Part shown: one piece after another, positions 39,767 to 45,617 of the stretch
Position numbering within the stretch: position 1 is the first letter of the stretch
Layout of the letters: each line of letters begins with the position of its first letter
Origin: a virus
Lineage: Duplodnaviria > Caudoviricetes
Direction: 5' to 3' (one strand)
DNA length: 64,000 nucleotides
Virus record (IMG/VR): IMGVR_UViG_3300026088_000014
Span: 13,039 to 77,038 of that record
The notes under the pieces: generated by a model
What the model saw: only the letters and a program-made list of their open reading frames with translations
The model's database searches: none
What the model was told of the DNA's origin: nothing
Made by a program: the position numbers and the translations under genes

Positions 39767-39843
39767 GAGCAGGTGTCCAGAATGGTTACGGATGTGTACT
39801 GCAAATCCGCAATATGTGGGTTCGACTCCCATCCTGCTCTCCA
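39767..39843 (+). tRNA. tRNA-Cys(GCA)
   Basis: Acceptor GAGCAGG/CCTGCTC, U73 discriminator, encoded CCA, loop CTGCAAA, GGGTTCGACTCCC; anticodon stem has a G-U pair and a U-C mismatch. Confidence 0.85.
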
Positions 39844-41869: not shown

Positions 41870-42229
41870 TCAGGTTACAAAGGAACTGATGGTCAGTCGA
41901 GCCCCAAGCGGTGCCGCATCTTTCCCGCCATAAGACACAACTAATAGACGGCAGAGGCAATCATCCTCTACTAATCCGACTCGTTGCGCCAAATCGAGCA
42001 AAACTTTCACGCGGTTGTCCACATCAATTTTTCGCTTGTTGGGTGGGTTGAGGACAATGGTGGCACTAAACTCTCCCCTAACCTGCTGATGCTTTCCGAG
42101 CTTGGCCAGCCAGCCGGCTTGGTCGATCCAGCGGACGTATTTGGGGTCGCGATAGACCACCTTGCCTTTCGATCGCCAGATGCGATTAAGCGACGGGGGC
42201 CACGGTAGATCCACAATGATCTGGCTCAT
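41870..42229 (-). CDS. rusA: RusA Holliday junction resolvase
   Basis: LPWPPSLNRIW, DVDNRVKVLLD and EDDC motifs. Confidence 0.88.
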   Translation of the reverse strand: MSQIIVDLPWPPSLNRIWRSKGKVVYRDPKYVRWIDQAGWLAKLGKHQQVRGEFSATIVLNPPNKRKIDVDNRVKVLLDLAQRVGLVEDDCLCRLLVVSYGGKDAAPLGARLTISSFVT

Positions 42230-42716
42230 GGGGGCACAATAGGCGGCTTTCCAACTCGCGTATATCGGCGACGATCTCTTGGTTGATCAGCACAAGTTCT
42301 TCGATTTTCCAGATTGCGTTCAGGACCGCTGTGTGGTCGCGGTTAAAGCGCATGCCGATGGCCGGGTAACTGAGCCTTGGGTTAGTATGCTTCCTGGCGA
42401 GATACATGGCCACGTGACGAGCCATCGTGATTCGTGCGGTCCTTTCCCGACTCATCATGTCCTCAATCAGAACCCCATAGTAATTGGATACCTCGTGGGT
42501 AATGTTTGAAAACGCTACACGTCCGTCGGGTCGATTGGGGATTTTGACGATTTCACGAATAAATACCCGGATGATGGGGTGTTCTAGTACCTCATCCTCT
42601 ACTGGTATTTGTTTAGGGTGAAGGTCGATTCCTTTGTCGGCCACAGCATTGGCTGGATACATCAATCGTTGCCGGACTTCCTTGGCGTGCTGAATCATAT
42701 CGGTGGCTAGCGTCAT
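42186..42716 (-). CDS. DnaA C-terminal (domain IV) HTH protein
   Basis: ARHVAMYLAR...SYPAIG.RFNRDHTAVLNAIWKI. Confidence 0.85.
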   Translation of the reverse strand: MTLATDMIQHAKEVRQRLMYPANAVADKGIDLHPKQIPVEDEVLEHPIIRVFIREIVKIPNRPDGRVAFSNITHEVSNYYGVLIEDMMSRERTARITMARHVAMYLARKHTNPRLSYPAIGMRFNRDHTAVLNAIWKIEELVLINQEIVADIRELESRLLCPHEPDHCGSTVAPVA

Positions 42717-42718
42717 GA

Positions 42719-43153
42719 CTACCTCCGGTGTGGGATGCAGTAGAGTTGCTTGTGACCCTCGCACCACGGTTTGTTCTCTTCCGTGGGTGCCGCGCACATG
42801 ACCGCCAAGCCCTTCGGGTCGCCGCTGAGGTCGATAACAGCCCGGCACCTGTCATGTCCTACCTCAAGGATGGATAGGCCCTTCCCGAGCCACGGCTGGG
42901 GCTCTACGGCCATGATTGGTTGCGTGGCTAATTGAGAAGGCGGCGGCGTAAAACGCAGACTTTGTGGATGTGCCGGTTTACGGCGTTGCCCTGGCGGCAA
43001 CAGGCGCGCCTTTAGTTCGAGGCGATGCACCTTGCCTAAGACAGAGCAGCGGCTTTTCTTCAAAACTGCAGAAATCTGTGAACCAGAGCGTCCGTCGCGC
43101 CACATTTCTCGCAGCGTTGCGATTTCATCGTCAGTCCAATTTGTCTTTGCCAT
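42719..43153 (-). CDS. gcrA: GcrA cell-cycle regulator homologue
   Basis: NWTDDEIATLREMWRDGRSGSQIS...SVLGKVHRL; C-terminal CR...C...WCEGH. Confidence 0.85.
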   Translation of the reverse strand: MAKTNWTDDEIATLREMWRDGRSGSQISAVLKKSRCSVLGKVHRLELKARLLPPGQRRKPAHPQSLRFTPPPSQLATQPIMAVEPQPWLGKGLSILEVGHDRCRAVIDLSGDPKGLAVMCAAPTEENKPWCEGHKQLYCIPHRR

Positions 43154-43340
43154 GTCCATCCACCCAGTCAGCAATGCTGACCCTGTTCTTGGTTGCTTTG
43201 GATATTTTCAGAATCCACTCGGCTCTTGGTTTGCGTCCATTGATCCGCCACTTGCAGACCGCCGAGTAGGATGCGCCGATTTGTGTCGCGAATTCTTGTG
43301 ACGTTATTTCCTTATCGATCAAGTATTTGTCGAATTTCAT
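43131..43340 (-). CDS. Cro-like HTH repressor
   Basis: 69 aa; ITSQEFATQIGASYSAVCKWR...P; RBS GGAG. Confidence 0.8.
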   Translation of the reverse strand: MKFDKYLIDKEITSQEFATQIGASYSAVCKWRINGRKPRAEWILKISKATKNRVSIADWVDGHGKDKLD

Positions 43341-43394: not shown

Positions 43395-43427
43395 CGGGAG
43401 ATTACAACACGAAAGAATTCGCAGGCT

Positions 43428-43470
43428 TTCTTTTTTCTCTCTCACCTCCGGTGAGAGAGAGAAAAAAGAA
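43428..43470 (+). promoter_or_regulatory. Pyrimidine/purine long hairpin upstream of the RAMP gene
   Basis: TTCTTTTTTCTCTCTCACC-TCC-GGTGAGAGAGAGAAAAAAGAA. Confidence 0.75.
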
Positions 43471-43510
43471 CCCCGGCGATCCCGCTGGCGCTCTCTACAA
43501 GGAGATTACG

Positions 43511-44173
43511 ATGCTTGATAAAGTAAAACCGAGGGCCACGTCGGTCATTCCGACAACGAGAGTTACGATTACCCCTCCGAAACTAGGAAGAGCCAAGGTT
43601 AGAATCGTCGGCACCGCTCCATATATTCAAAATCGTTTTAGTTCTGACAACCGCGACAAGATGCTTGCGGCTCAAAAGGAGGGATCGGGAGCAAAAAGAA
43701 CTCGCAAGGCAAAGGCCCCCAAAGACTTCGAGAAGATTTTTAAGGCTTCAATGCACATTTCCCAAAAAGGCTGGATTGGTATTCCGGCCACTGCATTGCG
43801 GAACGCAATGATCGATGCTTGTCGGCTGACCGAAATGGACATGGTGCGGGCAAAGATGTGCATCAAAATCATTCCTCAAGGATTGGATACCGAAAACCTA
43901 GAGGGACTTGTTGAAATCAAAGGCACGCCAAGAATGCACATTGAGCGTGTAAAAGTTGGCATCGCGTCAACAGATTTAGCGTCGCGAGCGATGTTCGAGA
44001 AGTGGGAATCGACGTTCGAGATCGAGTGGGACGATGATGTGTTCAAGGCTCAGGATATCGTTAACCTTCTTGCCAGAGCCGGATGGCAAGTTGGCATAGG
44101 CGCTGGTCGCCCCCTCTCAAAGATGAGCGGCGGCACTGGTAAAGGCACATTTGAAGTCGATATGAAAGGATAA
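43511..44173 (+). CDS. Stand-alone Cas7/RAMP-superfamily protein (Vipr-like)
   Basis: RIVGTAPYIQNRF, IGIPATALRNAMIDAC (RAMP IP.x.s.lk motif), DLASRAMF, C-terminal G-rich loop AGWQVGIGAGRP...GTGKGTFEV; RBS AAGGAG. Confidence 0.75.
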   Translation: MLDKVKPRATSVIPTTRVTITPPKLGRAKVRIVGTAPYIQNRFSSDNRDKMLAAQKEGSGAKRTRKAKAPKDFEKIFKASMHISQKGWIGIPATALRNAMIDACRLTEMDMVRAKMCIKIIPQGLDTENLEGLVEIKGTPRMHIERVKVGIASTDLASRAMFEKWESTFEIEWDDDVFKAQDIVNLLARAGWQVGIGAGRPLSKMSGGTGKGTFEVDMKG

Positions 44174-44178
44174 GACAA

Positions 44179-44634
44179 ATGAGCATTCAAGACGAACTCC
44201 TTCTCATCAAAGGCGACAGCGAACTCCTTACCGGAGAAGAGGTTGTAAAGTGGGCACGCGCTCATCCAGACTCAGAACTCTATAACGACCCCATCTTCTG
44301 TGGCTGGGATGAAAAGAAATCGGCCTATGAACACTGGCTATGGGGCGCAAGACGTTTGATTGCGCTGCATGTCGTCTACGAGGATGGTGAGCGAAAATTT
44401 GTCTCACTGTCTGTTGACAGGGCCAGAGATGGCGGCGGCTACCGGGATATGGACGAGGTGCTCCGCAGCAAGGCCCTGCATGAAGTCATGTTGGCCGATG
44501 CGTTGCGCGAACTTGAGAGGATGGAAGCAAAGTACAATAGACTTCTACAGCTCAAGCCAGTTTGGCGGGCAGCCGCCAGAGTACGTGGAGCGCAACGGAA
44601 GGGGAAAGGAGGGGGTGCAGGAAAGGCAGCTTAG
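44179..44634 (+). CDS. Helical accessory protein co-transcribed with the RAMP gene
   Basis: LTGEEVV..AR.HPDS.L...F.WD.K.AYEH.L..AR.LI...GGYR...EVL...ALREL. Confidence 0.75.
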   Translation: MSIQDELLLIKGDSELLTGEEVVKWARAHPDSELYNDPIFCGWDEKKSAYEHWLWGARRLIALHVVYEDGERKFVSLSVDRARDGGGYRDMDEVLRSKALHEVMLADALRELERMEAKYNRLLQLKPVWRAAARVRGAQRKGKGGGAGKAA

Positions 44635-44876
44635 CAGGCCCAGCTCAGCACAGCTTAGCCGAGTCAAGCCCGGCACAACCCAGCGCAGCATAGCAAAGCA
44701 GGCCAAGCGGTGCAGAGCGAAGTGTAGCTTGGAGAAGCCGAGTGTGGCATGGCAAAGCAGGCGCGGCCCAGCGAAGCTTAGCTTAGTCAAGACCGGCCCA
44801 GTATTGCCCAGCAAAGCAGGCAAAGCAAAGCCAAGTGTAGCGGGGCGAAGCATAGAAAAGTGAAGCACAGCGAGAA
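44633..44876 (+). ncRNA. Pentamer-periodic array (RGY-NN)n: four 53-64 nt units delimited by AGCAGGC; putative guide RNAs
   Basis: 48 in-register triplets: 32 AGY, 10 GGC, 6 other. Boundaries at 44633, 44697, 44756 and 44815. Confidence 0.8.
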
Positions 44877-44885
44877 ATAAAGACA

Positions 44886-45617
44886 ATGAGTGAAGTTGGT
44901 CATAACCTTCCGCCAAGCATGACAACTACAGCCGGAGAGATCATGCGCGATCTCTCTGGCTGGCTTTCTGAGCATCCTGTCATTCAGGATGAAACCGAAG
45001 CTAAAGAAGCAAAGATTTTTATTGATAGAGCAAGATTGGGATTAAAGGATTTAGAGGATGAACGGGTAAATCTAGTTAAACCGCTTAATCAGCAATTGGA
45101 GCAAATCAATGAGCATTACCGACAACCACGAGACACTCTCAGAAAAGTCCTCGATGAGCTCGAACGTCGAGTTACCGGATTTCTCACAGCTGAAGAGGCG
45201 AGACATAGACAGGATATTGCAGAAGCTAAGCGAGTTGCGGAGGCTGCTGAAGTCGCTGCGCGGGAAGCTGAGCGGCAAGAGTTGGCTGTCTTTGAACAAG
45301 CTAAGGCTGGAGAGCTTGGACTTGACGTTGCAGCTGTTACACTGGAAGCGAATGCAAAGTTTGAAACGTGGAAAAAAGCCAAGCGCGCGGAAATCCGCGA
45401 GGAAAGGGAAAAGGTAACACTTCCCAAAGGACTCACCCGCCCCAAGCGGATGCGAGATTATGAGACGCTTGTTGTCACAGACGTTGTTGCGGCAGTGCAG
45501 GTGATGAAGGATAGTGACCGCATCATCGAGGCCGTGCGAAAATCCGCACGGTCATACCAGAAAGTCTACGGTCATTATCCGCCGGGAATTGAAGTCAAGA
45601 TAGAGCGGAAGTTATAA
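44886..45617 (+). CDS. Coiled-coil phage protein (Gp157/Gam-like character)
   Basis: GHN.PP N-terminus; LEDERVNLVKPL...INEHYR; long coiled coil. Confidence 0.6.
   Translation: MSEVGHNLPPSMTTTAGEIMRDLSGWLSEHPVIQDETEAKEAKIFIDRARLGLKDLEDERVNLVKPLNQQLEQINEHYRQPRDTLRKVLDELERRVTGFLTAEEARHRQDIAEAKRVAEAAEVAAREAERQELAVFEQAKAGELGLDVAAVTLEANAKFETWKKAKRAEIREEREKVTLPKGLTRPKRMRDYETLVVTDVVAAVQVMKDSDRIIEAVRKSARSYQKVYGHYPPGIEVKIERKL

Follow-up and report, generated by a model that had tools for sequence, protein, structure and literature searches.

[quoted passage not shown] In its description, a RAMP protein named Vipr is accompanied by a vap gene and by GGY/NN vrRNAs, which recognize double-stranded DNA and skip one base in three. 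For SUSP1 and P. fulva, the VIPR preprints report that vrRNAs of 9–16 repeats co-purify with Vipr, that one Vipr protomer is bound per repeat, that the GGY triplet is flipped out and held while NN pairs with DNA and every third target base is skipped, and that rival satellites and prophages are transcriptionally silenced. The discovery preprint further sets out seven types (I–VII), staggered arrays and the repeat variants NNNGG, YNNNG, NNNNG and “a related consensus”, and it describes internal degeneracy as frequent in vrRNAs. A later preprint applied a genomic language model and reported 21 clusters whose triplet is other than GGY (bioRxiv 10.64898/2026.10.21.760802).

Here, a locus with these traits was analyzed in a window of 64,000 nucleotides, the whole stretch of DNA under study, which belongs to a linear virus record (77,038 bp) rated 100% complete and carrying one vipr. 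We conclude with confidence that the locus is a VIPR system, carried in the early region of an uncultured phage whose genome is complete. It shows every testable definitional feature of VIPR apart from one, the canonical G in the first scaffold position. The kind of system is already known, since the family was published in 2026 and non-canonical scaffolds have been reported. A preliminary description of this DNA had pointed to the VIPR family, and the literature describes the family as stated there (discovery preprint). The features of the locus are as follows.

43511..44173, plus strand: vipr, predicted vrRNA-binding filament subunit, RAMP (Cas7-like), 220 aa (from SUSP1/SUSP2 Vipr homology and the fold model)
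44179..44634, plus strand: vap, accessory protein, 151 aa (from tblastn synteny, alignment and the AF2 model)
44633..44639, plus strand: first AGCAGGC junction and array start, overlapping the vap stop codon at 44632–44634 (from the sequence and clade motif counts)
44637..44701, plus strand: vrRNA unit 1, 13 pentamers (from the guide caller and pentamer parsing)
44701..44760, plus strand: vrRNA unit 2, 12 pentamers (from the guide caller)
44760..44819, plus strand: vrRNA unit 3, 12 pentamers (from the guide caller)
44819..44873, plus strand: vrRNA unit 4, 11 pentamers, without a closing junction (from the guide caller)

Vipr, Vap and their genomic setting

The vipr open reading frame is preceded by AGGAG 8 nt upstream of its ATG. 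The sole PDB sequence match of the 220-aa protein was the SUSP1 Vipr (36pp_D), obtained with a single-sequence query over nearly the full length (E 0.014). With a 31-sequence profile, the same match reached an E value of 9.3 × 10−7, and the next PDB matches stood at 0.7. Alignment of the profile by hhalign with SUSP2 Vipr, for which the protein was taken from GenBank KT454806.2, gave 94.4% probability (E 8.6 × 10−8, 172 columns), and identity to the SUSP Vipr was ~24% across aligned columns. The motifs GIPATALRNAM and the Gly-rich GIGAGRP...GGTGKG loop were both located in conserved blocks of the 31-sequence alignment. By sequence comparison, the 220-aa protein is a homologue of the characterized Vipr.

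The preliminary description had called this protein RAMP-like, and the fold check agreed with a Csm3-type assignment. The AlphaFold (AF2) model (pLDDT 86.4) showed one RRM-type core (beta-alpha-beta-beta-alpha-beta) and no second RRM, with a helical insert after strand 1, a beta-hairpin “thumb” and a Gly-rich loop preceding the last strand. Csm3, Cmr4 and type VII Cas7 took the top Foldseek ranks (E 2 × 10−5, probability 1.0), and VIA-align superposed the model on Csm3/Cas7 with a Z of 11.5 and an rmsd of 3.5 Å over 148 residues; the structure library used for the ranking is older than the Vipr entries, so that the Csm3/Cas7 ranks exclude Vipr. The Cas7 backbones of types III and VII (Csm3, Cmr4, Cas7) share with this protein the RAMP fold (Z 10–11.5, ~150 residues) and a mode of assembly in which each subunit covers an RNA step of constant length. 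The Cas7 step is 6 nt, whereas the step here is 5 nt, and the published VIPR target is double-stranded DNA read with gaps.

No Pfam family and no PADLOC model matched Vipr, and PHROGs returned a function-unknown family only. The Vipr family comprised 2116 clusters at 50% identity (E below 1 × 10−3) and was present in more than 542 IMG/VR contigs as well as in prophage-like loci of many phyla. Its nearest relative among named phages was that of Cyanophage Cy-LDV1 (41% identity).

The vap gene starts 5 nt past the vipr stop, where the preliminary description had placed a 151-aa partner gene. In at least 70 of the 134 related loci, tblastn placed it immediately after vipr, which makes it an accessory gene (vap) as the discovery preprint uses the term. 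The AF2 model of Vap (pLDDT 86.8) consisted of an N-terminal domain (residues 1–96), a long 45-residue helix (98–143) and a basic Gly-rich tail. For the N-terminal domain, Foldseek matched forkhead domains (E 0.17–1) and VIA-align matched the winged-helix domains of ESCRT-II, SelB, Z-alpha and histone H5 (Z 5.0–5.6). These matches are consistent in type and their scores lie below a trustworthy fold level, weakly suggesting that the modeled residues 1–96 are winged-helix-like. Winged-helix-like and HTH-like Vap proteins are described for types II, VI and VII in the discovery preprint.

The Vap profile showed no similarity to SUSP2 Vap1 by hhalign (0.1% probability) and no match among PDB sequences; Pfam contained no family for it and PHROGs a function-unknown family only. 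To our knowledge, tests have covered the type II VIPR of SUSP1 and P. fulva only, and Vap1 is the only tested accessory protein. The lack of detectable similarity between Vap and Vap1 is a point against assigning the locus to VIPR.

CRISPR class 1 systems possess a repeat-spacer array and other Cas subunits, whereas the locus showed neither such an array nor Cas10, Cas5, Cas6 or Cas1. Tandem Repeats Finder detected no CRISPR-like array in the window, no Cas1 was found in the 77-kb genome, and defence-system and Cas models run against three proteins yielded no Cas match. The sole defence-system match among these three proteins was a weak JetA match for Vap. As far as screened, the statement of the preliminary description that CRISPR parts are missing therefore holds. 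Like the published VIPR, the locus is viral, has no cas genes and contains a single RAMP gene (vipr) followed by a small vap and by 5-nt arrays on the same strand.

The locus stands at the head of a plus-strand operon, with a divergent block on the minus strand. This block (41870–43340) encodes a Cro/CI-type HTH repressor-like protein, a GcrA-like cell-cycle regulator, a protein with a DnaA C-terminal domain, and RusA; DUF1376 lies beyond these. The GcrA-like gene hints at an alphaproteobacterial host. A tRNA-Cys (GCA) at 39767–39843 was the sole Rfam or ARAGORN match in the window.

The vipr leader, which separates this gene from the divergent HTH gene, contains a near-perfect polypyrimidine/polypurine hairpin of 17–18 bp (43428..43468, plus strand). 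The predicted RNA fold of 43415–43480 had −33 kcal/mol, compared with −16.0 ± 3.1 for shuffled sequences (z −5.4), and the closest relative (L002) carries a like hairpin of different sequence at the same place. As the hairpin has no T-run, it is not a plain terminator, and it may lie outside the VIPR system.

On the other side, a 243-aa gene (44886–45617) begins ~10 nt past the last guide unit, and its ribosome-binding region overlaps the end of unit 4. Its product matched phrog_10477, annotated as exonuclease (E 1.3 × 10−10). Since the gene was found only in the closest relatives and lies apart from vipr in one of them (L010), it is assigned to the phage backbone and not to the system.

The pentamer array and its linkage to vipr

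About 240 nt downstream of vap had been described in the preliminary account as a fixed triplet plus a variable dinucleotide. The 5-nt period was confirmed: identity at a lag of 5 nt in 44624–44876 was 0.52, compared with 0.28 ± 0.027 for shuffled sequences (z = 9), and was 0.47 at 10 nt and 0.18–0.28 at other lags. The array was the sole place in the 64 kb where a 60-nt window reached 0.6 at the 5-nt lag. The tract is, however, not a plain run but a series of four register-shifted units.

The information content at pentamer positions 1–5 was 0.94, 1.84, 1.03, 0.09 and 0.09 bits, respectively, for the 44 whole pentamers. The triplet was AGC in 21 units, GGC in 10, AGT in 7 and another one in 6; G occupied position 2 in 43/44, and position 1 was A in 31/44. 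The scaffold consensus is R-G-Y, mostly A-G-C, followed by an unconstrained dinucleotide. The canonical G-G-Y scaffold named in the preliminary description was not the one found here.

The heptamer AGCAGGC shifts the register by 1 nt at 44633, 44697, 44756 and 44815, so that the first three units measure 64, 59 and 59 nt and the fourth ~55–63 nt. Each unit follows the grammar GGC-NN, repeated AGY-NN and AGC-AA-AGC-AG, in which the closing G doubles as the first G of the next unit. The layout is four head-to-tail units of 11–13 pentamers each with a 1-nt overlap, and unit 4 extends into the ribosome-binding region of the gene that follows, whose ATG lies at 44886; the tract ends ~10 nt short of this ATG. 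The repeat number per vrRNA falls within the 9–16 given in the discovery preprint, and the 5n−1 spacing and 1-nt overlap fit the staggered vrRNA arrays in the legend of its fig. S18.

Folding of the tract as RNA revealed no more structure than in shuffled sequences (z +0.31), and Rfam returned no known RNA family and no hammerhead or other ribozyme in or near the array. A consensus scan for promoters and terminators found no sigma-70-type promoter and no terminator bounding the array, which speaks against the VIPR interpretation.

Compared with type II SUSP1/SUSP2 (PDB 36pp; locus L174, KT454806.2), the order vipr-vap-array is the same, and the homologous Vipr shares the RRM core, the thumb Arg and the G-loop ...G-x-G-x-x-R-P. 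The type II vrRNAs are separate ~100-nt units with a structured 3′ tail and a pseudoknot and are accompanied by Vap1, whereas the units here abut and are tail-less. The features of type II (the SUSP1 clade), vap1 and structured 3′ tails, are absent here.

The preliminary description had also asked whether homologues adjoin similar arrays. Of 80 viral loci, ~60 had RGY-NN runs beside vipr on the same strand and 1 had them on the opposite strand, and a motif-free periodicity scan detected arrays in most of 134 loci. When a guide caller was applied to 135 sequences, 526 of the guides lay on the same strand as vipr and 2 on the opposite one; in the 77-kb genome it called only the four units described. 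Across 14 same-clade loci, 150 copies of AGCAGGC were counted on the strand of vipr and 9 on the complementary strand, with spacing peaks at 44, 49, 54, 59, 64, 69, 74 and 79 nt, that is, 5n−1. Homologues do therefore adjoin pentamer arrays on the same strand in most loci. Together with the homology, the fold and the array grammar, this strand-specific linkage of protein, helper and array in more than 100 loci is what the analysis establishes.

The four guides resembled none of the 522 guides of relatives, as expected for hypervariable NN positions. Larger arrays were observed in close relatives with 75–83% Vipr identity (L008:5529-8053, L007:5574-8286 and L013:1335-3004), where 13 to 26 AGCAGGC junctions are spread over 1.7–2.7 kb, compared with four units in the window, indicating a fast turnover of guide number within the clade.

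These data bear on two other explanations of the tract. It could act as DNA (iterons, a protein-binding array or an origin) or be a repeat, coding or of low complexity, that has nothing to do with the RAMP protein, and open frames do cross it (44360–44863 on the plus strand, 44545–44925 on the minus strand). A 5-nt period with 1-nt register shifts cannot hold a reading frame, however, and unit numbers vary between close relatives. The strict strand bias (526 vs 2 guides, 150 vs 9 junctions) is unlike a duplex DNA site, and the array tracks the vipr gene across phyla. We regard a DNA-level or RAMP-unrelated role as extremely improbable.

The second explanation is a decaying or inactive VIPR remnant, with intact genes and an array without functional guides. 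Both open reading frames are intact and conserved, G is retained at position 2 in all but one of the 44 units, the unit lengths obey the 5n−1 rule of the clade, and internal vrRNA degeneracy is described as frequent in the discovery preprint. Decay would account for the six triplets off consensus, for the last unit lacking a closing junction and for the negative target searches reported below, but it appears very unlikely given the former observations. For a functional VIPR system, the same 6/44 triplets off R-G-Y remain an unfavorable point, as some units may bind poorly.

The G-loop residue and the first scaffold base

The published VIPR scaffold is G-G-Y, whereas the scaffold here is R-G-Y with A at position 1 in most units. 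Because the discovery preprint allows “a related consensus” and YNNNG, R-G-Y is read as a variant that does not exclude membership. The non-canonical arrays described in bioRxiv 10.64898/2026.10.21.760802 are likewise 5-nt arrays with a non-GGY triplet beside Vipr-like folds; the triplets named in the text of that preprint are GAC, CAC, WGT and TGH, and AGC, AGY or RGY does not figure there.

In the published account of SUSP1 Vipr, G1 is read by H17 and by D177 of the G-loop through a hydrogen bond, and G2 by R138 and W178. In the alignment with the window Vipr, the thumb residue R138 corresponds to the invariant R159, while D177 is replaced by Ala (GIGAGRP, Ala198), W178 by Gly and H17 by N41. 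The acidic G-loop residue is Asp in SUSP1 and Glu in most relatives. Among the 93 loci with G[IV]GEGRP, position 1 was G in 89% and A in 3% of chained repeats. The 15 loci with the G-loop Ala and Asn at the N41 position, mostly of the window's clade, had a mean of 55% A, and the window itself had 70% A and 24% G.

A-rich arrays were confined to one tree clade of 13 rows, within which L006–L008 were mixed (14–38% A). Two other origins of the G-loop Ala keep G or are mixed (42% A in L040, 8% in L119 and 0–18% in the remaining four). As the G-loop Ala has only three origins, that is, three independent contrasts, no statistical test is possible.

We hypothesize from these sequence comparisons that the G-loop residue and scaffold base 1 are linked. 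A tentative extension, to which we give a little less credence than to its opposite, is that the clade relaxed or shifted position-1 recognition from G to A/G through the G-loop Ala. This would give a natural R-G-Y/NN scaffold, perhaps orthogonal to GGY, paired with an accessory family unrelated to Vap1.

Target searches and proposed mode of action

Target patterns of the form NNx were scanned on both strands, and large collections were scanned for exact matches, which misses targets at 80–95% identity. In the phage's own 77-kb genome, the best matches were 15–16 of 22–24 bases per guide, equal to those of shuffled-guide controls; this lack of a self-match agrees with the VIPR finding of the discovery preprint. 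Guide matches in the 134 related loci were at the control level, those in five genomes with relatives were at chance level, and no rule stood out when 459 unique guides were searched against ~1 Mb with skip rules 0–3.

The exact full-length patterns of the four guides gave 0 matches each in IMG/VR (2.9 million viral contigs), the exact unit 1 pattern gave 0 in metagenome contigs, and the four guides gave 0 in five related phage records at up to 3 mismatches. In 401 sampled alphaproteobacterial genomes, unit 1 produced 3-mismatch matches only, 13 compared with 5 for the reversed-pattern control. The finding of no target for the four guides in the searched collections weighs against the VIPR interpretation; since the collection scans were exact-only, this absence says little.

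A 9-dinucleotide core of unit 2 matched 39 metagenome contigs and was rejected, as the matches fell in unrelated abundant genes, the flanking dinucleotides mismatched and the count was close to chance. Judged from the peptides by eye, the genes under these matches appear to carry motifs of SAM-methyltransferase and OppC-type permease kind.

The same searches are relevant to a third explanation, a working VIPR whose guides would target the chromosome of the host or the developmental control of the phage itself instead of rival elements. The locus adjoins a Cro/CI-like switch region, and no guide matched the viral contigs (exact) or the related phage records. Against this, no match in the own genome exceeded the shuffled controls, the alphaproteobacterial matches (13 vs 5) all carried three mismatches, and the missing viral matches come from collection searches that took exact matches only. 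Such targeting is considered unlikely, although less so than decay of the system.

In a related GGY-type locus, one guide matched a rival's vipr at 20/22 bases, in frame and with skip 1 (L027:5192-5246, L029:4319-4350), whereas L027's own vipr matched at only 17/22 at this site. About 0.1 such matches are expected by chance after multiple testing. It looks like one VIPR aimed at the vipr of a rival, as is reported for SUSP1-family phages in an October 2026 preprint.

For the window locus, a functional VIPR system aimed at rivals is the preferred explanation, and its mode of action can be proposed from SUSP1. By homology, one subunit would occupy each 5-nt step and the NN bases would specify the target; transcription, processing, Vipr-RNA binding, DNA silencing, the skip rule of the clade and the kind of target are proposed by analogy. 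Most likely, vipr, vap and the four-unit array would be transcribed as one operon, divergent from the Cro/CI-like HTH gene. The array would be cut at or near AGCAG|GC into RNAs of ~59–64 nt carrying 10–11 variable dinucleotides each. Each pentamer would be bound by one Vipr protomer, with the R-G-Y triplet sequestered and the two variable bases exposed. The resulting ribonucleoprotein filament would bind double-stranded DNA matching NNxNNx..., with one base in three skipped, and Vap probably aids DNA binding. Once bound, the filament would block transcription there, and the DNA concerned would most likely belong to a rival phage, a satellite or a prophage in the same host.

As the family is published and non-canonical scaffolds are known, the advance is modest. 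The locus contributes a complete and compact case from another clade, with two genes and four abutting, tail-less guides in 1.37 kb, and it suggests that a single residue of the G-loop may be tied to the scaffold base it reads, a link that can be tested. If true, this link could help explain how Vipr discriminates its own guides from those of rivals, and could yield orthogonal scaffolds with which to multiplex silencing.
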